Shown here one piece after another: positions 2,316 through 17,229 of a stretch of DNA of 64,000 nucleotides (position 1 is its first letter; each line of letters opens with the position of its first letter). The translations under genes were made by a program, and so were the position numbers. The notes below the pieces were generated by a model. It saw nothing but the letters and a program-made list of their open reading frames with translations. It searched no databases and was not told the DNA's origin. The stretch is from Candidatus Glassbacteria bacterium (lineage in GTDB: Bacteria; Gemmatimonadota; Glassbacteria; GWA2-58-10): NCBI GenBank assembly GCA_019456185.1, contig VRUH01000007.1, positions 6,829 to 70,828 on the forward strand. Direction: 5' to 3'.

Positions 2316-3323
2316 TCAGACCAATCCCTGCGACGAGAGGTTGCGGGCCAACTCCTGCAGGTAGGAATTGACCTGCTCGGGGTCGTCCAGACCCAGAATT
2401 CCGATCACCGCGCGGCCTGACTGGACAGCCACCACCTTGCCGTAGTACGAATCCTGCGCGGTAAACAGCGGGGACTCCATCCCCTCCGGCTCCTCGACAT
2501 TCCGGCCGTATTTCTCCATGAATTCCTTGTAGACCCGGTAGCTGCGGGCAGCTTGTTCGAGGTTGTCGTGGAGGATGAAAAACAGCTTGAACTCGCTGCC
2601 GCCGGACTCGTAATCAGCGATAAAACCGTTCTTCAATTCGCTGTGCCCCAGGACGTCCTGGGCCAGATAGCGCTGAGTACCAGCCTGCAGGCCGTTCTCG
2701 GGGAATGCGGCGAGCTGGGACGGATTGCCCGCGGGCGCATCGAGGCGTGCGCTGACGGCGCCGGCGAGCACTTCCAGCAAATCGCCCTTGCCGGTCTGGA
2801 ACGCGGTGACTTTTACGTAGTAGGGTCCCTGCCAGAAATGCAGGGCATTGTCGGTGAGATAGCCCTCGGCGCCGACATCCACGCGCGGTGCCAAGCTGTT
2901 ACGCTCGGCCGAATAGATCCCGAATCCGCAGAGCTGGTCGGCCATCCGGTAGATATCCACCACCGCCTGCAGGGAGCCATCCGAGGTTTCGCAGTCGGCG
3001 GTGATGACGGCCTCGAATTTGTAGACCAGATAGCCCTCGGCGCCGCCGTTGATATACTCCCACAGGTTGTCCGGAACGAATATCCGGGGGTCTCCGCTTA
3101 GCGCCCAGCCTTCCACCTCGCCCTGAACCGGCAGCAGCGCGGTCATCTCGCCGGCCAGCCGGCTGCTGTCGCCCGCCGGCTCCGAGGCTTTTTCAGCGGC
3201 TGCCTGGCGCTCTTGTTCCGATCCGGAGCAGCCGGCAGAGATAAGCACAACAGCAGCCAGGAGAAACACCAACAGGGGTTGAACAACTGAGTGACTGCGC
3301 GACATCGCCCGATGCTCCTTCAA
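2316..3323 (-). CDS. Lipoprotein of unknown function, paralog A of a two-member family in this window
   Basis: Signal peptide plus lipobox LISAGCSG. Shares motifs with the 9865..10923 product: LWEYINGGAEGYL vs LYDLINGGADIFM, and DIYRMADQLCGFGIYS vs KIYRMEDSEAAYGIFS. Confidence 0.6.
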   Translation of the reverse strand: MKEHRAMSRSHSVVQPLLVFLLAAVVLISAGCSGSEQERQAAAEKASEPAGDSSRLAGEMTALLPVQGEVEGWALSGDPRIFVPDNLWEYINGGAEGYLVYKFEAVITADCETSDGSLQAVVDIYRMADQLCGFGIYSAERNSLAPRVDVGAEGYLTDNALHFWQGPYYVKVTAFQTGKGDLLEVLAGAVSARLDAPAGNPSQLAAFPENGLQAGTQRYLAQDVLGHSELKNGFIADYESGGSEFKLFFILHDNLEQAARSYRVYKEFMEKYGRNVEEPEGMESPLFTAQDSYYGKVVAVQSGRAVIGILGLDDPEQVNSYLQELARNLSSQGLV

Positions 3324-3380
3324 AGTTAACTGTACCGGCGGATAAGCCTGTCTCCTTCATAATATAATCAACTTTCAGGC

Positions 3381-4719: not shown

Positions 4720-6972
4720 TCAATCCCGGACAAAAAACCGGGAATTCCGGCGGAAAGACCTGCCCTGCTGGTTGAGGTCTTCAATATTGATTGAAAGCTC
4801 GTAGAGACCGTTCTCGTTGTCACTGATGTCGATAGCCAGGTCTTCGGTCACCAGATCGCTTTCCAGCGGCGCCTTCTCCTTCTCCATCGTCAGGATCACT
4901 TTCTCCTTGCCGGGACTCGCGCCCAACAGCTTCCGGAAACCGTCATATATTTTACCAAACACGTTGCGGTCGCGTTCCAGTAAAGACATCGAATAGGTGA
5001 TCCGGTAATTGCACCTGCCGTTGGAATCGGGAACCAGGTTGTAGATCTCCTGGTAGACGTACATTTTCTGCGACGGGTGGAACGTGCGCGAGGGCTCCGG
5101 CTGGACCTCCAGCCCGTGGCGCAGGAATTTGCCGGAATCCGCCGGCGAGGCGAAAATCTGCCGGGCGGCGATTATCTGGCTGGCCTGCAGTGAATCCTCC
5201 CGGTAGCTGTCCACCGTCAAGTCGCCGTTGAACGTCCCGACCGAGCCGCCGTTGAGGATTTTGATGAAATAATGGTAATCCCCGGGTTCCAGCTCGATCC
5301 GGACCAGACCCACAATCTGGCGGTCCATCAGATCCCGCGGGTTGATCGAGGTTGTATGGCGGTCGAGCTGCTCGTGCCATTTCACCTGCTCCCAGGCCTG
5401 GTTGTAAATCGCCAGCTGGCTTTTGACCTCGAACTGGAAGCCCTCGCCAGTGTTGTTGGACGTAATCGCCCGCCCGGGCACGCCGGAATAGAACTCAACC
5501 GTACTTTTGCCATTTTCCCGGCCGCGAAATTCCACGAAATCGTACGAGCTTTCCAGCCTGTCGGTATAGGGATAGAGGACGCTTTCGCTGGACAGGGCTT
5601 TTTTCAGGGAAGTGATATTCTGGTCGTATTCATCGAGATGGGTGAACGGATCGTAGGGATTACGCGAGAGGCGGGCGTATATTCCGTTGCCGATTTCCAT
5701 CCGCGAACTGTACAGCTCGGTCATCCACTGGAGCCTGTGCGACTCCTCGGGCGCCGTATGGCTGACCCCTCCCAGCACGCCGCGAAAGTTCATAACCGCG
5801 GCCGTAAGCGAGGTAACCAGCTGGTAGTCGTAACTGCCCTTGAGCGCCACGAAATTGATAATCATGTCGCCGTCGTCGCGATAGTACACCCAGGTCACGT
5901 TGGGATGAAGGCCCTCGCCCATATGCTTGACCGACCGGTTGGGAGCCCCGTGGCGGATATGAATCACCCCGCGGTCATCGTAGCCCAGCGCCTCCTCCGG
6001 CACATAGCCCATCGAGGGATGAATGGAGGGACTGCGGCTGATAAACGGTACGCGGAACAGCGAATCGGCGGCCTGAAGGCGGCCATAGTGCTGGACAATC
6101 CTCACGCCGGGGGTAAGTCCGAGTTCGTGGTCTCGTTTGAGCCAGAAAGAACGGAAAAACTCCTCTGCCCGCTCCGGGCCGATATTCTTGTAAGTGTCAT
6201 GCTCTTCCCTGCCGGCCAGCATGACCAGGTCGTGAAAAAAAGGCTGCATCTGCTCCCGGGTTTTGATATCCGAGACGCCCTGCCAGTAATAGCGGAGTCC
6301 CTCGGCATATTTGGACCTGTAAAAATTTATCCGCGCCAGCTCCAGTTCCACCAGCGGATCGCCCTCGGCGACCTGGTGTTCCACGGCCTCGCGCAGAATC
6401 CGCTCGGCATTGACCAGATCTCCGCTGGCTTTGTGCAGTACGGCCAGCTTGAGGATGATGTCCCGCTTCAGGCCCCCAAGCTCGTAAGCCCGCCGCATGT
6501 GATCCAGCGCCAGGCCGGTATCGCTCTGGTCGAAACGGCGCATATAGGCGCTGCCGAGCCAGTAATGGGCCACCCACCATTCCGGGGCCAGCTCGACCGC
6601 GGTCTTTAGATGCCCTATCGCGCGGGAGATGTTGTCGTGGTGGAACAGGCGCTCCAAGGCCTGGAAGATGATAATCCGGCTGTCCCTGCTGATCAACTGG
6701 CTGCGGCCCAGCCCCACATGTACGCGGGAGTCGTCGGGTGCAATCTCCCTCGCCTGCTTAAAGGTGTGGCCGGCCAGTTCGCTGTCATCGTTCAGCAGCT
6801 GCTGCTCGCCGAGGCGGATCAGGGTGGTGAGCCTGGTGCGGACCGTGTCCTGGGGGATAGTCCGGTCGGGAATCATCTCAGCGGCGTTATCACCGGCGGC
6901 GGCAGCGGAAGGTCCGGCGGCTGCGATCAGCCACAAGAGCAGTACGGCCGTCGGGGAGGATAATTTTTGCAT
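4720..6972 (-). CDS. TPR-repeat plus GWxTD-domain protein, secreted
   Basis: 750 aa with an N-terminal signal (LLLWLIAAAGPSAAAA), helical TPR-like repeats (WLGSAYMRRFD..) and the signature EALGYDDRGVIHIRHGAPN. It lies 43 nt upstream of the other GWxTD gene. Confidence 0.6.
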   Translation of the reverse strand: MQKLSSPTAVLLLWLIAAAGPSAAAAGDNAAEMIPDRTIPQDTVRTRLTTLIRLGEQQLLNDDSELAGHTFKQAREIAPDDSRVHVGLGRSQLISRDSRIIIFQALERLFHHDNISRAIGHLKTAVELAPEWWVAHYWLGSAYMRRFDQSDTGLALDHMRRAYELGGLKRDIILKLAVLHKASGDLVNAERILREAVEHQVAEGDPLVELELARINFYRSKYAEGLRYYWQGVSDIKTREQMQPFFHDLVMLAGREEHDTYKNIGPERAEEFFRSFWLKRDHELGLTPGVRIVQHYGRLQAADSLFRVPFISRSPSIHPSMGYVPEEALGYDDRGVIHIRHGAPNRSVKHMGEGLHPNVTWVYYRDDGDMIINFVALKGSYDYQLVTSLTAAVMNFRGVLGGVSHTAPEESHRLQWMTELYSSRMEIGNGIYARLSRNPYDPFTHLDEYDQNITSLKKALSSESVLYPYTDRLESSYDFVEFRGRENGKSTVEFYSGVPGRAITSNNTGEGFQFEVKSQLAIYNQAWEQVKWHEQLDRHTTSINPRDLMDRQIVGLVRIELEPGDYHYFIKILNGGSVGTFNGDLTVDSYREDSLQASQIIAARQIFASPADSGKFLRHGLEVQPEPSRTFHPSQKMYVYQEIYNLVPDSNGRCNYRITYSMSLLERDRNVFGKIYDGFRKLLGASPGKEKVILTMEKEKAPLESDLVTEDLAIDISDNENGLYELSINIEDLNQQGRSFRRNSRFFVRD

Positions 6973-7160
6973 AATCTATATCCACCACCCGTCAACTGAC
7001 GGGTTCAGATGTGATCCGGTCTGTTGCACAGCTTTATACATTGCCTGTCACCCAAAGGTTCCGGTGCTTTGATATTTGCCGCGAAATACCTTAAAACGCA
7101 GCCGTGCACTATATTTATAACAGTCCATCAGCCATTTTTCCACTCTCATTTTCTGCCTGA

Positions 7161-7194
7161 AGCCCAAAAAAAGGCGCCCCGCCCGGGCCGCCCA
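7161..7194 (-). terminator. Rho-independent terminator after the polyferredoxin gene
   Basis: On the minus strand a GC-rich imperfect hairpin (GGGCGGCCCGGGCGGGGCGCC) is followed by TTTTTTT. It lies 33 nt past the stop at 7227. Confidence 0.5.
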
Positions 7195-7226
7195 TCAACG
7201 CTCTCACATGTTTTCAACCGCTCATC

Positions 7227-8843
7227 TCAAACTTCGCCCCCGCCGTAGACATCCAGCAGCAGCTGATTTTCCTGACTGCGGGACTCGCCGATCGAGGTGC
7301 AGTAAATTCCCGGCTTGTCGACCAGCGGGCAGGCATACTCGCAGATTCCGCAGCCGATACACAGGTGCGGGTCCACTTTGGGCTGCTTGATCACCTTGGA
7401 AACTCCCTCGCGGTCTGTTACCTCCACTTCCTCGAAATAGATCGCCTTCTTGGGCGTCGGGCAGACTTCCTCGCAGACGATGCAGCTGCGCCCGAGCGAG
7501 TATGGGAGACAGCGGTTCATGTCGAAAATCGCCAGGCCGATAACCGTCCGGTGCTTCTGCTCGGTGGTCAGTAGCTCGATAGCGCCCGTGGGACAGACCT
7601 GACCGCAGAGGGTGCAGTTGAACTCGCAGTAGCCGAGCTGCATTTTCAGGTACGGGGACCAGAACCCCTCCAGGCCGGCCTCCATCAGGGTGGGATGGAT
7701 CGCGTTCTTGATGCAGACTTTCATGCACTCTCCGCACTTGATACAGCGCTTGAGGAACTCCTCCTCGGCCACCGCGCCCGGCGGACGGATCAGGACGGGA
7801 TTGAACTTCCTGCCCTCGCGTCCGCTCCCCACCCGCGCTGACGGCGGCGGCTTGCGCGGATCGATCCGGAACAGGGCCAGCGCGCCCACAGCCGCGGCCG
7901 CCGAGGCCAGCACAGCCCGTTTACCGATATCCACCGAGGCTTCTCCGCGGGCGGGCAGGCCCAGACCCAGGCTGATCGAATCGTGGGGGCAGGCCTCCAC
8001 GCAGTTCCAACAGGTCAGGCACTCGCTGCGCATCCAGCTTTCTGTGCTGTGCGGCTCGCAGGCTCCCTCGCAGTTGCGCTTGCAGAGCATGCAGTTGGTG
8101 CAGGTCTGTTTGTCCACTTTCAGCTTGAGCAGGCTGAACCGGCCCAGCAGTCCCAGCAGGGCGCCCAGCGGACAGAGGTAGCGGCACCAGAATCTGCGGC
8201 GGAGTTGGTTCAGCACCGCAATCGCCACGAACAGCAGACCGATAAACAGGCCCTGGTAGAAATAGGGCTGCTCGAAAGACAGCACGTGGCTGCGCAGGAA
8301 CAGGAACACAGGCTCGACAATCGCGCTCAGCCAGGGCCGGTCCAACACCAGCAGCGGGTAGAACAGCGCCCGCGTGAGAAAATTGAACACCGGGTTAACC
8401 GCCAGGCTGAACGAGCGGATCAGCACGGAGAACGGGTCGAGGAAGCCGACAATCTGCAAGCCCAGGATTGATGCGATCAGCAAAAAGATAACGGCCACGT
8501 ATTTCCAGCTCTGGCGGCGGTCGTAGCGGTTGCGGCGGACATTTTCGGCCGTCTTGAGCCGGTTGTGGCTCAGGACGTGGTTCAGCGTGCCCATCGGGCA
8601 GACCCAGGCGCAGAAAAAGCGGCCGAACGCCACGGTAACCGCCACGGTCAGCAGGCTCCAGAGCATCATCGCGGGCAGGCTGTGAGCGGCGAAAAAAGCG
8701 GCCGCGGCCACCAGGGGATCGAAATCGAAGAAAATCTTGACCGGGTAACTGATCTGGTCGGTGCCCTTGTACTCGGTCATCACCAGCAGGAAGAGGAACA
8801 GAACGAAAAACAGAACCTGGCTGACCCTGCGCGCGTTCCGCAT
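7227..8843 (-). CDS. Membrane polyferredoxin of the NapH/MauN type (4Fe-4S binding protein)
   Basis: Two FxxCxWxCP membrane motifs (GRFFCAWVCPMG and RRFWCRYLCPLG). Several CxxCxxCxxxCP ferredoxin clusters (CIKCGECMKVC, CTLCGQVCP, CIGCGICEYACP). Multiple hydrophobic helices. Confidence 0.7.
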   Translation of the reverse strand: MRNARRVSQVLFFVLFLFLLVMTEYKGTDQISYPVKIFFDFDPLVAAAAFFAAHSLPAMMLWSLLTVAVTVAFGRFFCAWVCPMGTLNHVLSHNRLKTAENVRRNRYDRRQSWKYVAVIFLLIASILGLQIVGFLDPFSVLIRSFSLAVNPVFNFLTRALFYPLLVLDRPWLSAIVEPVFLFLRSHVLSFEQPYFYQGLFIGLLFVAIAVLNQLRRRFWCRYLCPLGALLGLLGRFSLLKLKVDKQTCTNCMLCKRNCEGACEPHSTESWMRSECLTCWNCVEACPHDSISLGLGLPARGEASVDIGKRAVLASAAAAVGALALFRIDPRKPPPSARVGSGREGRKFNPVLIRPPGAVAEEEFLKRCIKCGECMKVCIKNAIHPTLMEAGLEGFWSPYLKMQLGYCEFNCTLCGQVCPTGAIELLTTEQKHRTVIGLAIFDMNRCLPYSLGRSCIVCEEVCPTPKKAIYFEEVEVTDREGVSKVIKQPKVDPHLCIGCGICEYACPLVDKPGIYCTSIGESRSQENQLLLDVYGGGEV

Positions 8844-9787
8844 CAGATCTCGACCTCCGAGGTCCGGACGGCGTTCAGATCGAGAGTGCCCAGGCCCATC
8901 CGGCTGCCGATTTCAAGATAGCCGATCGCGGCGGGATCGATCCCGAAAAAGCCCGCGGCGCGGGCATCGGCGGCCACCGGGTCTACTGAGGCGATCACCG
9001 TGTCCAGCTGCTTGACATCGCCCAGGCTGCCGCCCGAGGGTCCGTTGGCGGTCAGAATCCGCACGGCGTCGATCACGGTCAGGGCCGGGGCGAAAAAGCG
9101 GGTCATCTCGGCAATCGAGAGGTGGACATCCTGGTGGAGCTGGTTGCGCCGTCCGCCCATCAGCCCGTAGAAGTTCTTCATCCCCAGCGTCAGGCGGCTC
9201 AACGAGTGGTGCTTGGCGATCGGGACGTTGATAATCCGGTCCACCTCCAGCGCCTCGCGGTAAACCGGCCACTCCTTGATCAACTCGCCGCCCACATTCA
9301 CTCGCCGGAAATTGTAGTCCTCCAGGAACGGCACCTCCGCGCCGACTTCCTCGGCCGCGGCTTTGATCCCGCTGCGCACGTAACAGCGCCTAGGGTCGTT
9401 GATCGTGTTGTCCAGCACGGTCACTTTGGCCGCGCCGGCATCCAGGCACATGGCGCACAGCTCGGCGACAACCTCGGGATTTGTCGTGGCCGCCTGGGCC
9501 GGGACCCTGTCCCAGCCGATATTGGGCTTGATCATCACCTTGTCGCCCCGGCTGACAAACACGCCCATCCCGCCGAGTTCCTCCACCGCCCGCCGGGTAA
9601 TCGCGCGGGCGTCCGCACCCTTGACCACCGACATTTCAGCCCCGACCACGTTAACCGGCCTGGGGCTGCGTCCGCCGGCGGCGGCAACTGACCCGCCCGA
9701 GCCCTCGCCTCCCCCACAGGCCCCCAGAGCGGCCGCGGCAGCCGAGCCACCCAGGAGTTTGAGAAAGCTTTTTCTATTCAGAGACAT
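8843..9787 (-). CDS. DUF362-domain protein carrying a Tat-like (RK variant) signal and a lipobox
   Basis: MSLNRKSFLKLLGG..AALGACGGG at the N-terminus, then a DUF362-like core (MIKPNIGW.., NVPIAKHHSLSRLTLGMKNFYG). Its stop overlaps the polyferredoxin start as ATGA, which suggests translational coupling. Confidence 0.55.
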   Translation of the reverse strand: MSLNRKSFLKLLGGSAAAAALGACGGGEGSGGSVAAAGGRSPRPVNVVGAEMSVVKGADARAITRRAVEELGGMGVFVSRGDKVMIKPNIGWDRVPAQAATTNPEVVAELCAMCLDAGAAKVTVLDNTINDPRRCYVRSGIKAAAEEVGAEVPFLEDYNFRRVNVGGELIKEWPVYREALEVDRIINVPIAKHHSLSRLTLGMKNFYGLMGGRRNQLHQDVHLSIAEMTRFFAPALTVIDAVRILTANGPSGGSLGDVKQLDTVIASVDPVAADARAAGFFGIDPAAIGYLEIGSRMGLGTLDLNAVRTSEVEI

Positions 9788-9864
9788 AGTTAGGTCCTCC
9801 TGAGACCTTAAACGTCTTAATCGTGCCGATGGTACACTTTTGCCGATAACTGCCGGTGAGCCTG

Positions 9865-10923
9865 TTAATTCTTGCTGCCCGAGCCCGTGGACATGCCGCC
9901 GCCGGGGGGATTACCCGTCCCGTGCGGTGATGCCGACCGCTCCGGCTTGACCGCACTGTGGGGATTGCTTTTCCCCGTGTCGTGCAGCGCACCGGCCTGA
10001 TCGAACAGGGCGGTAATCTGGGTTGTCCGCAGGATTACCACGTCCATTCTGTCCAGATGAGTGTAGACTATCCGCTTGTCGGTGATCTTGGCGGTCGCGC
10101 TGTCGGCGGCGGCCAGATCGGCCTTGTCACGGTAAAAGGCGGTCACCGAAGAGAAAACAGCCTCGGCGAGGGTGGAATCCGGGTACTGGACCACCAGGAA
10201 ACTGGCCGGGTTGCTGTTTTCGCGCATCCGGTAGGCACCAAACGCGCCGGGAATGCTGTCGCTGATGGTAAACACGTTCTCGTCACCGACAAAGCGTAGT
10301 GAATTCAGCCCCAGCGGACCCTCGAGATAGGTCTCCGTATGCGGGATCAATCCGCGGCGCGGCAGCAGGGACAGGATATCGGGCCAATCATCCGGCTCAT
10401 CGGCCAGTTCAAGCTCGATTCGCGAGGCGATCTCATCGAGAGCCGCGGCGGTAACCTGATCGCGGTCCGCAGCCTGAACATCGACAAAATATTCTCCCGC
10501 ACAGAACAGGACCCGGTAGTCTCCGCGAGCGCCGATAGTGCCTTTCGAGACCGGGCGGTGCGAAATCTTCCGGTTGACACTGAAGATCCCGTACGCGGCT
10601 TCGGAGTCTTCCATGCGGTAGATCTTGGCCACGATCGAAACGCCGCTGCCGGATGCGTACTCTTTGACCGCGGTTTCCTCGCAGCCGAACTCCATGAAGA
10701 TATCCGCGCCGCCGTTAATGAGATCATAGAGTTCGCGGCCGCTGTAGACTTGGGCTTGACTGCCGGCAACCGTGCCCTCCGGCAGTTCGCTCAACGGGAA
10801 CAGGGCCGTCAACTCGCTCGGCCCATCAGAGCCCGCTTGCTTAGCTCCGCCACAGGCAATCAGCGCAGTAATAACCGCAGCCAGCAGCAAGCGGGTGATC
10901 CCGTTTAGAGAATTCTGACTCAT
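9865..10923 (-). CDS. Lipoprotein of unknown function, paralog B
   Basis: Lipobox LIACGG. Shared motifs with the 2316..3323 product (LINGGAD, KIYRMEDSEAAYGIFS). Confidence 0.6.
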   Translation of the reverse strand: MSQNSLNGITRLLLAAVITALIACGGAKQAGSDGPSELTALFPLSELPEGTVAGSQAQVYSGRELYDLINGGADIFMEFGCEETAVKEYASGSGVSIVAKIYRMEDSEAAYGIFSVNRKISHRPVSKGTIGARGDYRVLFCAGEYFVDVQAADRDQVTAAALDEIASRIELELADEPDDWPDILSLLPRRGLIPHTETYLEGPLGLNSLRFVGDENVFTISDSIPGAFGAYRMRENSNPASFLVVQYPDSTLAEAVFSSVTAFYRDKADLAAADSATAKITDKRIVYTHLDRMDVVILRTTQITALFDQAGALHDTGKSNPHSAVKPERSASPHGTGNPPGGGMSTGSGSKN

Positions 10924-11027
10924 CCAGACCTCCAGCCGGGCATCGGTCTTCCCGGCAGTAGCTGATAACCTGCTCAGTTAAAGGTTGGAATTTACCGGAT
11001 CATAACCGAATTGTCAATTGCGGGCGG

Positions 11028-11942
11028 TCATCCCTGACAGCCCTCAAAAAAGCGTATCGTGGCCAGCAGGCATTCACGCTGATCCGGTTCCGGCCGGTAA
11101 CCCAGCGATTTGAGGCGCGAGATGTCGGCGTAGCTGGTATGGATATCGCCCGAACGGGGACCGGCATGGATCAGCTTGCTCGAGGAGCCGGTGAGGTCGA
11201 TAATCTGCCGGGCGATATCGTTGATCGTGATATGTTCGCCGCGGGCGACGTTGCACACCGGACCACCTTTTTCCGAAGCCAGTACGCAGGCGGAAACGAC
11301 GTCTTTGACATAGACGAAATCGCGTACCTGGGTACCGTCGCCGTACACCGTGATATCCTCGCCACGCAAGGCCCTGTGAATGAAAATCGGAATAGCGGCG
11401 GCATACTGGCTCCGGGGGTCCTGGCGCGGCCCGAAGACGTTGAAAAACCTGAGCGGTCCCGCCCCCACGCCCCACTCGTCCTCGAAAATCTTCAGGTAAT
11501 ACTCGCCATCGAGCTTGGTCACAGCGTAAGGACTCTTGGGTTCGGGCAGCATATCCTCGCGTTTGGGCACCACCGGGTTATCGCCATAGACCGCCGCGCT
11601 GGAGGTGAATACCACGCGTTCCACTCCGTGTTCACGGGCGGCTTCGAGGACATTGAGCGTACCCTGTGTATTGATCTCCACGCACTCCGCCGGCTTTCCC
11701 AGACTTTCCGGCACACTGATCATCGCCGCCAGGTGAAACACCCGGTCCACGCCCTCGAACAGCGGAAACAGTCTCTCCCTGTCCGTAATCGTCACCTCGT
11801 GGAACTGATGGTTCAGGCCATCCAGGTTGCTCCGGTAACCGGTACGAAGGTTGTCGACAACTACTACCTCGTGGCCGGCATGAAAATGCTCGACAACGTG
11901 ACTGCCGATAAAACCGGCTCCGCCGGTAACCAGAATGCGCAT
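11028..11942 (-). CDS. NAD-dependent epimerase/dehydratase (UDP-sugar 4-epimerase-like, SDR family)
   Basis: MRILVTGGAGFIGSH Rossmann motif at the adjusted start (ATG 11942). Catalytic YAVTK (YxxxK). Length is typical for GalE/WcaG-like enzymes. Confidence 0.8.
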   Translation of the reverse strand: MRILVTGGAGFIGSHVVEHFHAGHEVVVVDNLRTGYRSNLDGLNHQFHEVTITDRERLFPLFEGVDRVFHLAAMISVPESLGKPAECVEINTQGTLNVLEAAREHGVERVVFTSSAAVYGDNPVVPKREDMLPEPKSPYAVTKLDGEYYLKIFEDEWGVGAGPLRFFNVFGPRQDPRSQYAAAIPIFIHRALRGEDITVYGDGTQVRDFVYVKDVVSACVLASEKGGPVCNVARGEHITINDIARQIIDLTGSSSKLIHAGPRSGDIHTSYADISRLKSLGYRPEPDQRECLLATIRFFEGCQG

Positions 11943-12193
11943 CAGCAAGTGCTCCGGGACAATGAAAAACTTACGGACCGTCCTGAATTCCAACCGGCTG
12001 TTAATTTGCCACCCTCCCGCTGATAAATCAAGCGCATACGGTGGGCGCAAGCCGTTTCAAAACATCCACGTCATTGACAAAATTTGGCAGTTCCGCTAAC
12101 TTTCGGACTCTTTCCCGGTTATACCAGAACCGATTACCCGGATAATAATTAAGCGTTTGATCTCATCATAAAGTTTGTCTGCAAGGAGGACCG

Positions 12194-13558
12194 GTGGCTA
12201 ATACATTTTCGACTACGCCGAAAACAGTTCCCGAGGTGTCCACTGCCAACCGCACGATTAAAACCCGGATTCCGGTACCTGAATCTCTGCCTGTTATCGA
12301 TAAACTGCGCAAGTACGAGCCGATCTCGATGTCCGGCCAGCCGCTGGTGCTGTGGAACAAGGGTGAGGGCGCAACTGTCTGCGACTCGTGGGGCAACCGC
12401 TGGATCGACTGGTCGAGCGGAGTGCTGATCACCAACGCGGGCCACAACAACCCCCGAATCCGTCAGGCGATTATCGACCAGGCCGAGTCGGGGCTGCTGA
12501 CCAGCTACTGTTTTCCCAACAACCCCAGGGCGCGCCTTGCCGAACTGCTGGTGGAGATTACGCCGAAAGAACTGACCAAGGCGTTTATCCTCACCACCGG
12601 CAGCGAAACTGTGGAATGCTGCCTTAAGCTGATGCGCACCAACGGCCTGCGCAAACACGGCAAAGACAAGATAACGATTGTCAGCTTCACTAACGCGTTT
12701 CACGGCCGCACCCTGGGAGCCCAGCAGCTCGGCGGGATCCCCAAGCTGAAAGACTGGATCGTCAACACCGATCCCAATATCGTACAGGTAGCGTTCCCCG
12801 ACGGGTTCCGTAACCCGGACACCAGTTTCGCGGGGTTCGAGAAAGCCCTGGCCGAACAAGGGGTCACACCGGAGTCGGTGGCCGGCGTGATCCTGGAAAC
12901 TTACCAGGGCGGCGGCGCCAGTTTCGCTCCTGTCGAGTATATCATGGCCCTGCGTGAGTGGTGCGACAAGCATGGAGCGCTGCTCACGTTCGATGATGTC
13001 CAGGCAGGGTTCGGACGCTGCGGCAAGATGTTCGGCTTCGAGCACTACGGAGTCATCCCCGACCTGACATGTTTCGGCAAGGGTATCAGCAGCAGCCTGC
13101 CGGTTAGCGCCGTGCTGGGCCGCGAGGAAGTGATGAACCTCTACGGTCCGAACGAAATGACCAGCACACATACGGGCAACCCCGTCTGCGCGATGGCCGC
13201 GGTGGCCAATATCGGATCGATTATCGATGACAAGCTGGTCGAGAACGCCGCCGCCATGGGCCAGGTGCTGCTCGACGCTCTGGCGGGTCTGATGACCAAG
13301 TACGACTCGGTGATCGGCGCAGTACACGGCAAAGGCCTGGTGGCCGGGGTTCATGTAGTCAAGCCGGGTGGGATCGAGCCGGATGCCGACCTGGCCTGGC
13401 ACGTGGTCAACAGCTGCGTGGAAAAGGGCCTGCTGATGTTCGCGCCGGTTGGTTTCGGCGGCGGCACCGTGAAAATCTGCCCGCCGCTGGTGATCAACCG
13501 CGATCAGGTGGAGGAAGGCCTGGCCGTGCTGGACGAGGCTTTCGAGGAAAATCTCTAG
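12194..13558 (+). CDS. Class-III (PLP-dependent) aminotransferase family protein
   Basis: 454 aa with motifs LTFDDVQAGFGRCGKMFGFEHYG and TCFGKGISSSLP (Schiff-base Lys region). GTG start 3 nt after AAGGAGG. Confidence 0.8.
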   Translation: MANTFSTTPKTVPEVSTANRTIKTRIPVPESLPVIDKLRKYEPISMSGQPLVLWNKGEGATVCDSWGNRWIDWSSGVLITNAGHNNPRIRQAIIDQAESGLLTSYCFPNNPRARLAELLVEITPKELTKAFILTTGSETVECCLKLMRTNGLRKHGKDKITIVSFTNAFHGRTLGAQQLGGIPKLKDWIVNTDPNIVQVAFPDGFRNPDTSFAGFEKALAEQGVTPESVAGVILETYQGGGASFAPVEYIMALREWCDKHGALLTFDDVQAGFGRCGKMFGFEHYGVIPDLTCFGKGISSSLPVSAVLGREEVMNLYGPNEMTSTHTGNPVCAMAAVANIGSIIDDKLVENAAAMGQVLLDALAGLMTKYDSVIGAVHGKGLVAGVHVVKPGGIEPDADLAWHVVNSCVEKGLLMFAPVGFGGGTVKICPPLVINRDQVEEGLAVLDEAFEENL

Positions 13559-13844: not shown

Positions 13845-16424
13845 TTAGTTGCTGGCCCGACGGACGTCGGGAACGCGGATCGCCGGGTTGGCCAGCAGGT
13901 AGGTGCTGAACACGAACTCGAACCGTCCGTTGGTCAGCGTGATCAGGCTCAGGTTGGCGCGCCAGCAGTGAAGGTCGCGGTTGAGGATAAACCGCTGCCC
14001 CTGCAGGCCGCGGGCGTTGAAATTGAAACTGCTGCTGTAGACCAGGTGCCACTTGGCGGTCGGGTTGAACGTGAACGACCAGCGGATACTCTGGTTGTTC
14101 CGTGCTGCGGACCGGGATCGGCTGAGGTTGTGGCTGATATTCACGCTCCACGGCATCGCCCGGCTGAAAGCCAGGTCGCGTTGAGTTTCGTAGTCGCTCA
14201 TCCGCGGGTTGAACGCGCTGCCGGCGGTGCCTGGATAGCGCATGCTCTCGCGGTATGCCTCCTCTTCCAGCTCCGCAGGCGATTGCTGCCGGCCTTCGCC
14301 CTTGTAAGTCCCTCTCAACGTGATAGTCGTGCTCAGGCTGCGCATGAACGGATCGAACCGTTCCCGCTGCCCCGGTTCAACCAGGTCGTGGTTCATCAGC
14401 AGCTGGACGTTTAGGAACGAGGTAGGACTGGAGGTAATCGAAGTCGAAAGATTCCCCCAGCCCAGAGTGTCACGCTTGGCCGCGCGGGTAAAATCGTAGT
14501 TCAGGCTGTTTCGCACTCTCACAAGCTGGCCGTTGCGCGAGGGCCGCTCGTCATCGTTCGCCGCGGCGCTGTCGGTTCTGGAATCCGTATCGGTGAAGTA
14601 CTTGTAGTCGATATCATTGGAGATCGACAGGCTCAGCCGGCTGACCTTGCCCCGGGTTCTGAGCTCGGTCAGGTCGGGCTGGAAATTATAGGTCAAGGTG
14701 GGCCGGATCGTGTGGCGCCAGCGGTAAATCGGACCCAGCCGCGGACCATCGAAAAAACCGTAGATCTGGGTGGACATCGACGAGGAGAAATTCAGGGTCT
14801 GTTCGTGATCGAACCGCTCGCCGTCAGCGCGAAAATTGTCGTGGGAAAGGCGGGTACTGTAACGCAGGCTCGGATTAACCTTGAGCCAGCCGTAAAGTGT
14901 CTGCGGAGAATCGAGTTCGAACCGGCTGTTGGAGTTGTGGACAGAGCGGGTGGAATCGTTGCTCTCGGTGGTCCGGTTGTGGCTGTAGCTTGTCGAGGCG
15001 CCCCAGGTGATATTGTACAGCCAGCCGCTGGAGACCAGGCCGTGACGGCGCGGGACGGTCCGGGACATGTAGGGAAACAGGCCGCGCTTGTTCAGGCTCA
15101 GGCTGGCCGAGGGGAGGTTCGTCACGGTGCGGTCGCTGCTCAGGAATTTCTCGTGACGCGCGCTGGTGGTGAATGATCCCCAGGACGGTCGCCAGTAGTA
15201 ACTGGCCGTGGAGCGCACGCTCTGGCGAAGGAGGTCCTGCTGGTCGAATCCCGTGCGCTGCAGGAGGTCCCGGCTGGAGGTGTAGTTGACCTCGGCATTG
15301 AACCTGCTGCTTTCGCTGAGAGTCTGGTTGTGACGGCCGAAGATGCTGAAATCCGTGGAATTGTTTATTTTGTCGTTAATCCGACGGATGTCGAAATTCC
15401 CGTCGTAGCTGTATCGCTTGCGGTAGCGTGTCCGGCCGCGGAACGTAGTCTGGCTGCTGGTGCGGATATCAACCGCGCCCAGAAAATCGACGTAATCGCT
15501 GGGCGCCCAGAAATAGCCCAGGTTACCGAAAGTACGGCCTGTGATCCTGTCGTAGGCGATACTGTTGACGCCGATCCTGGGCTGGAGGATTCCCGACTTC
15601 CGGTTGCCCCGCGTGACCGGGAAAAAGACGAACGGCAGGGCGAACACCGGCACCTTGCCCACCTTGAGCACCACCGGCGAGGCGAATACCCGCTTGTCGC
15701 GGATTACCTTGATCCGCCTGCTTTCAAAATGGAAGTGCTTGGACTGCTCCAGGTCACAGGAAGAGAACACGTTGCCCCGGCCGAAAACACTATCCGCTCC
15801 CACCTTGGCCATCCGGCTGCTGTGCAGCTCCCACTCGGCAAACTGCGTACTTCCCTCGGAAATAACCCCGTGGTTGTGGTCAAGGTTGTAGCGCACCCGG
15901 CCGCCCTCAAGCTCGTCGGTACCATCGGAGAGCCGCGTCTTGCCGCTGACAAAGATATCGCCTGTGGAGCGGTTGTAGGCAATCAGCGAGTCGCTGGCCA
16001 CTTCCTGCTGCTGGCTGGACACATCGGCCTGGCCCTGCAGCACCATCACGTTGCGCTGCATGAAAAACACGATCCGGTTCCCGGCATAACGAACCGAGCT
16101 AACGCGGCCCATGCCTTTCTCGATCAGCGCCTGCATAATACTGTCTGGTTCGGGGATCCTGAGAGAATCTGCTCCGGCTGAGGTGTCCGCGCTGGTTGAA
16201 TCGGAACTCGAAGAATCCCGGCTGGCAGGGGCTGATGTTGTATCAACTGATAATCGAACGGCTTCCGGCCGCTGCGCCCACGCGCGAGGCTGCCAGCAGC
16301 AAACCAATACGGCGGCCAGCAGTGCGAGCGGCAACACACTGCCCGGGCGGGCCGGATGGGGGAAAAACAACGGATCAGCCTGCCCGCTCGCCCTTCTGCT
16401 TTTTGCGGGCCACGACATAGGCAA
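13845..16424 (-). CDS. lptD: LPS-assembly outer-membrane protein LptD/OstA-like
   Basis: Signal peptide. N-terminal OstA/LptA-like fold (AGNRIVFFMQRNVMVLQGQADVSS...IAYNRSTGDIFVSGK). A large C-terminal region rich in beta-strand-like alternating patterns ending in aromatic residues. The start is ambiguous because it overlaps tatC by 50 nt. Confidence 0.6.
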   Translation of the reverse strand: MPMSWPAKSRRASGQADPLFFPHPARPGSVLPLALLAAVLVCCWQPRAWAQRPEAVRLSVDTTSAPASRDSSSSDSTSADTSAGADSLRIPEPDSIMQALIEKGMGRVSSVRYAGNRIVFFMQRNVMVLQGQADVSSQQQEVASDSLIAYNRSTGDIFVSGKTRLSDGTDELEGGRVRYNLDHNHGVISEGSTQFAEWELHSSRMAKVGADSVFGRGNVFSSCDLEQSKHFHFESRRIKVIRDKRVFASPVVLKVGKVPVFALPFVFFPVTRGNRKSGILQPRIGVNSIAYDRITGRTFGNLGYFWAPSDYVDFLGAVDIRTSSQTTFRGRTRYRKRYSYDGNFDIRRINDKINNSTDFSIFGRHNQTLSESSRFNAEVNYTSSRDLLQRTGFDQQDLLRQSVRSTASYYWRPSWGSFTTSARHEKFLSSDRTVTNLPSASLSLNKRGLFPYMSRTVPRRHGLVSSGWLYNITWGASTSYSHNRTTESNDSTRSVHNSNSRFELDSPQTLYGWLKVNPSLRYSTRLSHDNFRADGERFDHEQTLNFSSSMSTQIYGFFDGPRLGPIYRWRHTIRPTLTYNFQPDLTELRTRGKVSRLSLSISNDIDYKYFTDTDSRTDSAAANDDERPSRNGQLVRVRNSLNYDFTRAAKRDTLGWGNLSTSITSSPTSFLNVQLLMNHDLVEPGQRERFDPFMRSLSTTITLRGTYKGEGRQQSPAELEEEAYRESMRYPGTAGSAFNPRMSDYETQRDLAFSRAMPWSVNISHNLSRSRSAARNNQSIRWSFTFNPTAKWHLVYSSSFNFNARGLQGQRFILNRDLHCWRANLSLITLTNGRFEFVFSTYLLANPAIRVPDVRRASN

Positions 16425-17229
16425 TCCAGACGCTCAGCTCGTAGAGAAACGCCATCGGCACGGCCACCAGGACCATACTGCCCGGGTCCGGAGGAGTCAC
16501 TACCATCGAGAGGAGAAAAATACCGACAATCGCATGCCTGCGCTTGGCGCGCAGAAACTGGGGTGAAATAATCCCCAGCCGGGCCAGCAGCATAATCGCG
16601 ATCGGCAGTTCGAAGACGAACCCGGTGGCCATGATCATTTTCAGAGCCATGTCCAGGTAGCTGCTGGCCGTGAGCATGAACTCGGTGGAGGCGAACTGGA
16701 ACTTGCTGAAAAACGCCATCCCCAGCGGCAGGGTGATATAAAAGGCCATCACCGCGCCGAGGACGAACATGAAAATCGAGGCGAACAGGAGCGGGAATAC
16801 CAGTCTGCGCTCCTTTTTCAGCAGGGCGGGTGCGAGAAAGGCCCAGAGCTGGTAAAGAATGACAGGCGAGGCCACAATCAGTCCGAACCCGAACGAGAGC
16901 TTAAGCGCGATCATGAACCCTTCGGTGGGCCTGATAATCATCAGCTTCCCGTCGCGAAGGTACGGGGCTACGGGTTTGACCAGGATCTGCAGGATATCGT
17001 ACCTGCTGTTGAGGTAGAAGCCGATACAGATGCCGATAAAGAGGGTGGCCAGGCTCCAGAGGATGCGCATGCGCAACTCCTCCAGATGGTCAAGGAAAGG
17101 CATCTCGCTCTTGCGGTTGAGGTCGTCTTCATCTTCCTCCTGGCTGTCATCGTAAACCACCGGCGGTGGCGGCGGAGGGGATTCGACCGGAACCAGCTTT
17201 TTAGTTTCTTCGTCCATCGCACCCTGCAA
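16375..17229 (-). CDS. tatC: Twin-arginine translocase subunit TatC
   Basis: MPFLDHLEELRMRILWSL plus six predicted TM helices and the conserved TPPDP motif. Confidence 0.85.
   Translation of the reverse strand: MQGAMDEETKKLVPVESPPPPPPVVYDDSQEEDEDDLNRKSEMPFLDHLEELRMRILWSLATLFIGICIGFYLNSRYDILQILVKPVAPYLRDGKLMIIRPTEGFMIALKLSFGFGLIVASPVILYQLWAFLAPALLKKERRLVFPLLFASIFMFVLGAVMAFYITLPLGMAFFSKFQFASTEFMLTASSYLDMALKMIMATGFVFELPIAIMLLARLGIISPQFLRAKRRHAIVGIFLLSMVVTPPDPGSMVLVAVPMAFLYELSVWIAYVVARKKQKGERAG

Follow-up and report, generated by a model that had tools for sequence, protein, structure and literature searches.

A candidate periplasm-facing redox module of a DUF362 lipoprotein and a NapH-NapG-type polyferredoxin in Candidatus Glassbacteria

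Gene order and conservation of the locus

We analyzed a 64,000-nucleotide (nt) stretch of contig VRUH01000007.1 of a Candidatus Glassbacteria bacterium, referred to below as the window, on whose numbering all coordinates are given unless another locus is named. The subject is a set of three minus-strand genes that lie head to tail and code for a DUF6599 lipoprotein, a DUF362 protein with an export signal and a polyferredoxin in which NapH- and NapG-like halves are fused. Read in the direction of transcription, the unit comprises the following features (aa, amino acids):

10989..11017, minus strand: promoter-like site TTGACA-17-TAAATT upstream of the DUF6599 gene, the putative start of the unit (consensus scan, 10 of 12 matches)
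9865..10923, minus strand: DUF6599 lipoprotein gene, 352 aa, first of the unit (PF20244, E = 1e-29)
9796..9801, minus strand: Shine-Dalgarno sequence AGGAGG, read from the sequence, 8 nt ahead of the DUF362 ATG
8843..9787, minus strand: DUF362 gene, 314 aa, coding for a signal peptide, a Gly/Ser tether and a predicted LarA-fold domain
8841..8845, minus strand: TGATG junction, in which the DUF362 stop (TGA) and the polyferredoxin start (ATG) have one base in common
7227..8843, minus strand: polyferredoxin gene, 538 aa, a NapH-NapG fusion of the architecture named PFD
7162..7192, minus strand: terminator-like G+C-rich hairpin with a run of seven T (T7), about 40 nt past the polyferredoxin stop (pattern scan and sequence)

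The coordinates that an earlier note, made from the sequence alone, gave for the DUF362 and polyferredoxin genes are borne out, both lying on the minus strand. The note had described the two as coupled through a four-base ATGA overlap; stop and start do overlap, but by the single base of TGATG. This 1-nt overlap recurs in other Glassbacteria loci (L006, L086-L089; L numbers denote surveyed loci), and the gap between the DUF6599 and DUF362 genes is 77 nt. The terminator said to follow the pair was also found, as the hairpin and T7 run at ~7162-7192; the folding energy of the wider 106-nt region is unexceptional (z = -0.17). The promoter-like site is a pattern match only, the count of such sites in the region not being above that in shuffles, and an Rfam scan of 6900-11400 matched no family. 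The remark on a paralogue of the lipoprotein upstream of the pair was correct as well: the DUF6599 gene at 9865..10923 has a second copy in the window at ~2319-3356 (minus strand; jackhmmer, 182 bits), with a very hydrophobic Sec-type signal and a lipobox. This copy sits after a GWxTD gene and takes the same place in Glassbacteria loci L086-L089.

The pair is conserved far beyond Glassbacteria. A survey with one genome per species recovered at least ~600 stretches with DUF362 relatives, and gene neighbourhoods were compared for the best 80 of these at least ~600. In 76 of the 80 species-level loci, a PFD gene lies on the same strand within 6 kb of the DUF362 gene, mostly directly downstream with a gap of <250 nt, and upstream in a set of Acidobacteriota. 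The loci come from many phyla (Nitrospirota, Acidobacteriota, Aminicenantes, Myxococcota, Syntrophales, Krumholzibacteriota, Glassbacteria and others), and their flanking genes are otherwise unrelated. Adjacency in so many related loci (76 of 80) means that the arrangement is not due to chance, and this same-strand co-occurrence supports the suggestion of the earlier note that the pair forms a trans-membrane electron-transfer module. Of the 80 loci, 19 have the DUF6599 gene next to DUF362 or PFD, as do all Glassbacteria loci not truncated upstream, which makes it a recurrent third component of the module.

Architecture of the polyferredoxin and the DUF362 export signal

The polyferredoxin is built as follows:

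7968..8843, minus strand: NapH-like half, aa 1-292, with two Fer4_5 matches, four membrane helices and predicted cytoplasmic clusters
7908..7931, minus strand: internal Tat-type (twin-arginine translocation) motif D-I-G-K-R-A-V-L, aa 305-312, containing K308-R309
7869..7916, minus strand: fifth membrane helix (TMD5), aa 310-325, AVLASAAAAVGALALF, Ala-rich and weakly hydrophobic
7851..7868, minus strand: positive patch R-I-D-P-R-K, aa 326-331, directly after TMD5; R-(I/V)-D-x-R-K in the Glassbacteria clade
7305..7811, minus strand: NapG-like half, aa 345-513, with NCBIfam NapG/MauM matches, predicted to be periplasmic

NCBIfam models match NapH over aa 176-292 (E=4e-30) and NapG over aa 345-513 (E=2e-27). 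The label of a NapH-type polyferredoxin given in the earlier note accordingly fits the N-terminal half; the C-terminal half is NapG-like, and the protein is hence a fusion. In the NapH-like half there are CxxxCP motifs at aa 78-83 (C-A-W-V-C-P) and aa 220-225 (C-R-Y-L-C-P) and two Cys4 motifs at aa 248-258 and 275-285. Of the two CxWxCP motifs previously proposed, the first (CAWVCP) reads as described, whereas the second is CRYLCP, both being of the CxxxCP type. Loops rich in Lys and Arg (aa 1-6, 83-115 and 212-222) fit a NapH topology with four transmembrane helices and the N-terminus inside, and the AlphaFold2 (AF2) model places helices of this half at aa 2-23, 60-81, 109-126 and 196-214. 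The NapG-like half carries four Cys4 motifs (aa 367-377, 406-417, 445-461 and 495-505), all 16 cysteines of which are invariant. The at least four 4Fe-4S clusters claimed for the protein are thus matched by six Cys4 ferredoxin motifs, two in the N-terminal and four in the C-terminal half, and the 28 cysteines of these motifs and the two CxxxCP pairs are all invariant in 27 polyferredoxin homologues.

The segment between the two halves is likewise conserved. The aligned internal motif is D-L-G-R-R-R-V in ~100 non-Glassbacteria homologues and has K-R or R-R in the Glassbacteria clade, with D305 and R309 invariant in 27 sequences. A twin-arginine motif before the last helix therefore holds at the level of the family, and the window protein carries a K-R variant of it. 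TMD5 has the lowest 19-residue hydropathy (1.70) of the five helices and is modeled as a discrete helix at 308-326 (predicted local distance difference test, pLDDT, ~77). Since the internal K-R, R-R in relatives, stands directly before this weakly hydrophobic fifth helix, the NapG-like half with its four [4Fe-4S] motifs should face the periplasm, as the architecture and a tested relative suggest. The conserved motif and the fifth helix ahead of the NapG-like half agree with the expectation that the Fe-S domains are partly periplasmic.

The tested relative belongs to the PFD proteins described by Tooke et al. 2017 (eLife, PMC5449189), which are NapH-NapG fusions in which a twin-arginine motif immediately precedes a weakly hydrophobic fifth helix and positive charges follow it, with three clusters predicted inside and four outside the cell. 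The PFD of delta proteobacterium MLMS-1 (Q1NSB0) needs both Sec and Tat: export of maltose-binding protein (MBP) and AmiA reporters was Tat- and RR-dependent, and the positive charges after the helix were linked to its release by Sec (PMC5449189). Like the window protein, Q1NSB0 has a NapH-like N-terminal half of four helices with cytoplasmic clusters, a NapG-like C-terminal half with four [4Fe-4S] motifs, and a twin-arginine-type motif before a weakly hydrophobic fifth helix followed by positive charges, although the motif is R-R in Q1NSB0 and K-R here. PFD homologues are found in Nitrospirae and other uncultured phyla, as are the relatives of the window protein; the accessions of Table 5 of Tooke et al. 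were absent from the six PFD match clusters looked up. Judged by its architecture, the window polyferredoxin is a new member of the described PFD family. The Q1NSB0 paper is silent on a partner protein, whereas a DUF362 gene nearly always adjoins PFD here; this conserved pairing and the Glassbacteria variant of the DUF362 signal are not described in the searchable literature.

The N-terminus of the DUF362 protein, M-S-L-N-R-K-S-F-L-K-L-L-G-G-S-A-A-A-A-A-L-G-A-C, reads as quoted in the earlier note, both in its R-K signal and in its lipobox:

9758..9784, minus strand: Tat-type n-region S-L-N-R-K-S-F-L-K, aa 2-10, with R5-K6 at 9770-9775
9716..9727, minus strand: lipobox L-G-A-C, aa 21-24, Cys24 being the residue predicted to be lipidated
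9641..9715, minus strand: disordered Gly/Ser/Pro-rich tether, aa 25-49 (pLDDT <50 over aa 24-35, low to ~aa 49)

The lipobox fits [LVI]-x-[AGS]-C, with the Cys within ~35 residues of the start and a Gly-rich tether after it, which marks the protein as a lipoprotein by sequence criteria. Among the N-termini of 120 DUF362 homologues, 80 (from Nitrospirota, Acidobacteriota and others) have a canonical (D/N/K)-R-R-x-F-L-K motif without a cysteine, 32 have R-K together with a G-C-G lipobox and all belong to the Glassbacteria clade, one has R-N, and seven are truncated or show no recognisable motif. Within the 32 clade members, R5 and F8 are conserved in 100 %, and K6, G13 and C24 in 97 % each; Cys24, kept in 31 of the 32, is absent from the RR-type relatives. 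The tether is the least conserved DUF362 segment of the clade (mean 0.52). Given RRxFLK at the homologous position in 80 of 120 homologues, the DUF362 signal is, on the alignment, a descendant of a canonical Tat signal, and R-K with the lipobox cysteine is a fixed, Glassbacteria-specific variant. Contrary to what had been thought, it follows that a DUF362 protein with a Tat signal is not unusual: such a signal is the norm in this subfamily of at least ~600 genome stretches, and only the combination of R-K and lipobox is lineage-specific.

In place of the strict RR pair of a canonical Tat signal, the window protein has R5-K6, and Lys stands at the second position in 31 of 32 clade members. The window DUF362 protein does have the other residues of the S-R-R-x-F-L-K consensus, an h-region that is Gly/Ala-rich and weakly hydrophobic, and homology to RR signals; a Pfam scan gave no PF10518 match for it. 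Its h-region has a hydropathy of 1.53, versus 2.1-3.5 for all other signal peptides found in the window, among them that of the DUF6599 lipoprotein (2.9), a hydrophobic Sec-type signal with lipobox L-I-A-C. Export of the DUF362 protein is well supported by these sequences, and the Tat route is probable for the R-K form. As a fixed R-K lipoprotein signal, it offers a natural test case for the strictness of the twin-arginine requirement.

The DUF362 domain, LarA and the nickel-pincer genes

The profile hidden Markov model of DUF362 (PF04015) matches aa 84-277 of the window protein on profile positions 1-198 of 200 with 172.6 bits (E=1.4e-50), far above the cut-off of 24, which confirms the family assignment made earlier. 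No other Pfam family matches at E<=10, including Lar_N (PF09861) and LarA_C (PF21113), and a search of PDB sequences with the DUF362 profile returned nothing at E<=10. The AF2 model (pLDDT 88.4; predicted template modeling score, pTM, 0.84) consists of the signal helix, the disordered tether and a compact alpha/beta domain from ~aa 50:

8846..9640, minus strand: catalytic-looking domain of predicted LarA fold, aa 50-314 (predicted fold and alignment)

In an alignment of 193 sequences, which includes tandem paralogues of 21-25 % identity, D126, N187, K192, H194, K204 and G208 are invariant, and K87, D93, R94, R134, C135 and H218 are nearly so. The tandem paralogues, 21-25 % identical to the Tat-type copy, occur at L030, L037, L040 (4902-5924 and 5929-6942), L046, L062 and L079; they keep the six invariant residues and have often lost H218.

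The only structural relatives of the DUF362 model are LarA enzymes dependent on the nickel-pincer nucleotide (NPN), which suggests that the modeled domain has the LarA fold. Consistent with this, DUF362 and the N-terminal domain of LarA belong to one Pfam clan (PMC11770544), and the Pfam DUF362 model scores genuine LarA proteins at E ~1e-5. The LarA superfamily (PF09861/PF21113; PDB 5HUQ, 2YJG, 6D6Z, 9EIA, 9Q3J) comprises NPN-dependent 2-hydroxyacid racemases and epimerases, from which the window protein differs considerably: identity is 10-14 %, and the domain has ~265 residues versus 420. Moreover, it is predicted to be exported and lipid-anchored and is paired with an Fe-S conduit, whereas characterised LarA enzymes racemise or epimerise without net redox change.

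For residue-level comparison, LarA sequences from Lactiplantibacillus plasmid and PDB alignments were used and profiles were compared by hhalign; the added LarA sequences are mostly 77-90 % identical to L. plantarum LarA, so that the effective sequence number (Neff) of the LarA profile rose only from 2.4 to 2.8. The two families align over 243 co-linear columns with E = 0.019. DUF362 H194 is paired with the catalytic H174 of LarA (posterior 0.90), D183 with D163, N205 with N199 and G202 with G182. LarA K184, the NPN tether in L. plantarum, falls in a 14-residue insertion, and K204 is paired with A198 (posterior 0.77); moving the gap by two residues gives K204 = K184 at a cost of ~3 bits. The nickel ligand H200 is paired with the aromatic F206, and H108 with Y136 at low posterior, so that in the best alignment K184, H200 and H108 are not retained and one of the three LarA histidines H108/H174/H200 (H174) is. 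The conserved DUF362 pocket thus appears to coincide with the LarA active site, and the LarA cofactor ligands are not demonstrably retained in the alignment.

Three other comparisons were discarded. The similar spacing of R94/H194/K204/H218 and LarA R75/H174/K184/H200 had been taken as retention of all NPN ligands; it was dropped as evidence because the only matches upheld by the profile alignment are H194 = H174 and a loop with an Arg near R75; the fully ungapped register scores -8 bits. A custom DUF362 model run against 120 LarA sequences gave scores near zero and inconsistent placement, that is, noise, and hhalign in global mode gave a meaningless end-to-end overlap.

Genes for NPN biosynthesis recur beside the module. 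LarE, LarC and LarB encoded there all score above the NCBIfam equivalog cut-offs (LarE 303-339 bits versus 150). In five of eight Glassbacteria loci, LarE is the next same-strand gene after PFD:

L004, 10728-11567: LarE
L005, 8655-9509: LarE
L006, 2915-3769: LarE
L088, 12791-13672: LarE
L089, 12634-13527: LarE

LarE does not follow PFD in the window, where a 254-nt spacer precedes a TPR gene, nor in L086 and L087, and neither LarB, LarC, LarA nor an aldo-keto reductase (AKR) is encoded within 10 kb in the Glassbacteria loci. Outside Glassbacteria, LarC-LarB-LarE flank the module in three Syntrophales-type loci (L055, L077 and L078), and in L076, an Acidobacteriaceae chromosome, LarC/LarB/LarE form one same-strand cluster with PFD-DUF6599-DUF362-DUF362. 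There is no canonical DUF2088 LarA gene in any surveyed locus and no Lar gene in the 64-kb window; of the 80 loci surveyed, just 6 have a Lar gene within 6 kb. All loci with Lar genes also have DUF6599 (5/19 versus 0/60, p = 5e-4).

A second NPN-binding family, the aldo-keto reductases of the NphT type, was found by Semersky et al. 2026 (Nat Chem, PMC13524815; PDB 9YEB) through larB/C/E linkage in LarA-less genomes; hundreds of genomes make NPN without LarA, and the study excluded LarA homologues and does not mention DUF362 (PMC13524815). No paper in the searchable literature links DUF362 to NPN. NphT has a TIM-barrel fold unrelated to DUF362. However, AKRs with a Tat signal (RRxFL) and 8-10 cysteines in the last 110 residues are encoded beside the module, also in L018, L021 and L038, and contiguous with DUF6599-DUF362-PFD, in three gene orders, at eight related loci:

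L055, 3592-4758: Tat-signal AKR
L069, 3394-4611: Tat-signal AKR
L077, 3535-4785: Tat-signal AKR
L078, 3722-4888: Tat-signal AKR
L057, 3502-4686: Tat-signal AKR
L060, 8507-9763: Tat-signal AKR
L056, 7820-9035: Tat-signal AKR
L076, 8855-9964, minus strand: Tat-signal AKR

These proteins have G-x-(S/T)-x-H where ordinary AKRs have GVSN, at the position of NphT T142/H144. They often adjoin LarC/LarB/LarE, and all four non-Glassbacteria loci with Lar genes have one. From its sequence, the Tat-signal AKR may belong to the NPN-dependent AKRs described in 2026, as a member that is exported and Fe-S-linked, and in these four loci the Lar genes may serve the AKR. No AKR is encoded in the 64-kb window.

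Proposed function and alternative explanations

NapGH-type modules link the quinone pool to exported nitrate and nitrous oxide reductases, and NosGH and MauMN are pairs parallel to NapGH. In E. coli and in Wolinella succinogenes, membrane-bound NapH and Tat-exported periplasmic NapG pass quinol electrons to an exported enzyme (PMC5449189). NapH with its CxxxCP motifs and cytoplasmic [4Fe-4S] clusters and NapG with four periplasmic [4Fe-4S] clusters resemble the two halves of the window polyferredoxin; NapGH, however, consists of two proteins and the window polyferredoxin of one fused polypeptide, and the client is NapAB or NosZ in NapGH/NosGH, whereas the candidate client here is the DUF362 protein of predicted LarA fold. 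No nap, nos or mau genes occur near the window module. The same logic is found in MsrPQ (YedYZ) and its fused Sco3746-type relatives, where a membrane redox subunit inserted by Sec on the respiratory chain serves a Tat-exported, cofactor-bearing periplasmic enzyme and which occur as two genes or as a fusion (PMC5449189), although MsrPQ uses heme b and molybdopterin rather than Fe-S clusters and a LarA fold and has no sequence relationship to the window module.

We consider it fairly probable that the locus is a three-gene unit encoding a quinol-linked, periplasm-facing redox module of the NapGH type with a LarA-fold partner. In the mechanism that we propose, helices 1-4 of the polyferredoxin would be inserted by Sec, which by the architecture of the protein would leave both CxxxCP motifs and a pair of [4Fe-4S] sites facing the cytoplasm. 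Helix 5, with K308-R309 before it and R326/R330/K331 after it, would be released by Sec, and the NapG-like domain, its four [4Fe-4S] sites loaded in the cytoplasm, would be moved across the membrane by Tat, as expected from the family tested by Tooke et al. The DUF362 protein would be exported folded, lipidated at Cys24 and tethered to the membrane by its flexible linker of ~25 residues. The conserved adjacency of the genes suggests that it may dock on the periplasmic NapG-like domain as a redox client of the Fe-S chain leading to the quinone pool; going by the NapGH and NosGH parallels, the most likely direction of electron flow would be from quinol to the exported enzyme. The active site of DUF362 would lie where LarA binds its cofactor and include H194, K192, K204, N205, D126 and C135, and DUF6599 would be a Sec-exported accessory lipoprotein.

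A conduit of the NapGH kind, in a fused Sec/Tat-inserted form, is thus nearly always paired with a DUF362 protein, and since the pairing spans many phyla, it probably represents a periplasmic redox activity that is widespread in sediments, soils and groundwater but has gone unrecognised. The results supply a candidate partner for the orphan polyferredoxin of Tooke et al., and for DUF362 they point to a place in the cell, a redox context and a candidate active site; a literature search on DUF362, PF04015, COG2006 and DUF6599 found no functional study.

Several observations weigh against the proposed module. The mature DUF362 protein has no Fe-S motif through which it could exchange electrons with [4Fe-4S] clusters. 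The polyferredoxin scores below the equivalog/subfamily cut-offs both for NapH (NF007013 / TIGR02163; 104.8 and 100.7 bits versus 234 and 213) and for NapG (NF007012 / TIGR00397; 95.8 and 73.7 bits versus 269 and 179), and by sequence is NapH- and NapG-like, not NapH or NapG proper. Its AF2 model, whose C-terminal half is poor, has low confidence (pLDDT 56) and served for helix boundaries only, and Q1NSB0 was likened to the window protein by architecture. As regards export, Tat is reported to tolerate a lone Arg-to-Lys substitution in the twin-arginine pair poorly (PMC7317946), the lipobox was gained along with the R-K change, as would fit a switch to Sec, and no other RR-type signal, sought as a positive control, was found in ~150 kb of Glassbacteria DNA. 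Finally, the Tat-signal AKR contiguous with the module in eight loci has a Cys-rich domain of its own and could be the real client of the Fe-S chain.

Two of the alternatives that these observations raise concern export. Glassbacteria DUF362 proteins might have left Tat altogether, R-K and lipobox marking a switch to Sec/signal peptidase II (SPII), by which the lipoprotein would be exported unfolded and without cofactor and would fold in the periplasm. The clade with R-K instead of R-R is the very one that gained the lipobox cysteine, the h-region of this clade is slightly more hydrophobic than that of RR relatives (1.67 vs 1.51, p = 0.004), some families work with either the Tat or the Sec route (PMC7317946), and the mature domain carries no motif for Fe-S or another obligatorily cytoplasm-loaded cofactor. 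By contrast, R5, K6, F8 and K10 are fixed across sequences differing by up to ~40 %, a constancy that a Sec n-region does not need, and the window h-region is still Ala/Gly-rich and far less hydrophobic than all other signal peptides of the window. Furthermore, twin arginines are not mechanistically essential, and their loss can be offset by a modest rise in h-region hydrophobicity with Tat use kept (PMC7317946); a TatC is encoded in the window, in which the HLxELR and PALxxxERR motifs are retained. The sequences favour a natural R-K signal of a Tat lipoprotein as roughly twice as likely as a switch to Sec, which appears rather unlikely. That the whole system faces the cytoplasm, with aa 310-325 forming no membrane helix, all Fe-S domains inside and the DUF362 N-terminus an uncleaved anchor or non-functional, is highly improbable. 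It would accord with the modest hydropathy of aa 310-325 (1.70), with transmembrane prediction that is ambiguous in the PFD family (PMC5449189) and with a C-terminal half of the PFD model that is unreliable; however, the RR motif, the helix and the positive patch are conserved in ~120 homologues, export of MBP and AmiA by the family member of the same architecture relied on Tat and on the RR pair, homologues of NapG are Tat substrates located in the periplasm (PMC5449189), and the DUF362 family has full Tat consensus signals.

The other two concern the client and its cofactor. DUF362 may itself use NPN, made by LarB/LarE/LarC and loaded in the cytoplasm, which would be why the family uses Tat; PFD would then couple NPN hydride chemistry to the Fe-S/quinone chain or keep the cofactor reduced. 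This possibility, which we regard as unlikely though about as plausible as a switch to Sec, would sharpen the proposed redox module rather than exclude it. It is consistent with the exclusively NPN-dependent structural relatives and the shared Pfam clan, with LarE next to PFD in five of eight Glassbacteria loci that have neither AKR nor LarA within 10 kb, with LarC, LarB and LarE at L055, L077 and L078 and in the L076 cluster, with the lack of a DUF2088 LarA in any locus, with the pairs H174=H194, N199=N205, D163=D183 and G182=G202, and with the hundreds of NPN-making genomes that lack LarA (PMC13524815). However, K184 lies in an insertion that DUF362 lacks, its match to K204 costing ~3 bits, H200 faces an aromatic residue, H108 is not conserved, and the whole alignment reaches only E = 0.019. 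Moreover, the window has no Lar gene and only 6 of 80 loci have one within 6 kb; every Lar-linked locus outside Glassbacteria has a Tat-signal AKR, from a family proven to use NPN, which the Lar genes may serve, and in Glassbacteria LarE alone adjoins the module, not LarB or LarC. In a less likely alternative, the client of PFD is a different exported enzyme, for instance an AKR with a Tat signal and an Fe-S domain of its own whose gene lies elsewhere in the genome, and DUF362 is a subunit that binds substrate, acts as a scaffold or is otherwise accessory. No site for an electron-accepting cofactor is recognisable in DUF362, and the contiguity of the Cys-rich AKR with the module in three gene orders is a sign of functional linkage; yet in the majority of the 80 loci PFD has no conserved neighbour but DUF362, AKR genes are missing from the 64-kb window and from within 10 kb in every Glassbacteria locus, the invariant polar pocket of DUF362 is typical of enzymes, and DUF362 domains are reported to co-occur with Fe-S binding domains in other proteins (PMC5742341).

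With respect to the proposed module, binding of NPN or a derivative by DUF362 is a tentative idea, and it is a little more doubtful that Tat-type DUF362 proteins form a second, exported branch of NPN or NPN-like enzymes, loaded in the cytoplasm, exported by Tat and wired through the NapH-NapG polyferredoxin to the quinone pool. If true, an NPN enzyme would for the first time be placed outside the cytoplasm and have a net redox role tied to an Fe-S chain, and pincer-type hydride chemistry would be linked with respiratory electron transfer across hundreds of species, most of them uncultured. The predicted LarA fold and the recurring Lar neighbours make DUF362 a testable candidate NPN user in LarA-less organisms.

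Among the neighbouring genes, the earlier note had pointed to tatC:

16375..17229, minus strand: tatC (PF00902, E=2e-65), 6,588 nt away from the start of DUF362

Its product has HLxELR and PALxxxERR motifs that are presumably those of E. coli TatC. The distance of ~6.6 kb is right, but as a functional clue the proximity was rejected. The genes between tatC and DUF362 are unrelated and of mixed orientation, and the block MazG-TatC-LptD-aminotransferase-epimerase-DUF6599-DUF362-PFD is conserved in all Glassbacteria loci examined and absent from the loci of other phyla; the position of tatC therefore reflects lineage synteny, a gene order confined to Glassbacteria. The longest LptD_2 frame (13845-16424, minus strand) overlaps the 3' end of tatC by 50 nt, and the LptD start is probably further downstream. 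Long antisense open reading frames without family matches, at 5272-6609 (plus strand), 12149-13402 (minus strand) and 11139-12023 (plus strand), lie opposite the TPR, aminotransferase and epimerase genes and look like artefacts of the G+C-rich composition.

Gene order varies among the surveyed loci. In Acidobacteriota it is PFD, a short DUF6599, DUF362 and DUF362. Genes inserted between DUF362 and the polyferredoxin code for a DAO-type FAD oxidoreductase (L001, 9179-10285) and a B12-binding radical SAM protein with DUF4070 (L014, 2217-3749). A 2.9-kb DUF362-PFD fusion frame in Sorangium (L074) was rejected as over-extended, the two coding regions being in different frames. The Glassbacteria relative L087 has an additional DUF362 gene of 277 aa (7811-8644) upstream of the DUF6599 gene, and on the long-read Glassbacteria contig L004 (8001-10592) the DUF362 call has 412 aa and the polyferredoxin falls into pieces of 393 + 68 aa, both probably owing to assembly frameshifts. 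Four loci with a Tat-type DUF362 and no polyferredoxin (L032, L053, L064 and L068; e.g. L064, 706-1977 and 1935-3608; L032, 3604-5796, minus strand) have in common a 730-aa spermine-synthase-like protein (c20). L064 and L068 also have a radical SAM gene and a Memo-AMMECR1 fusion (AmmeMemoRadiSam-like), and L032 and L064 a second, divergent DUF362.

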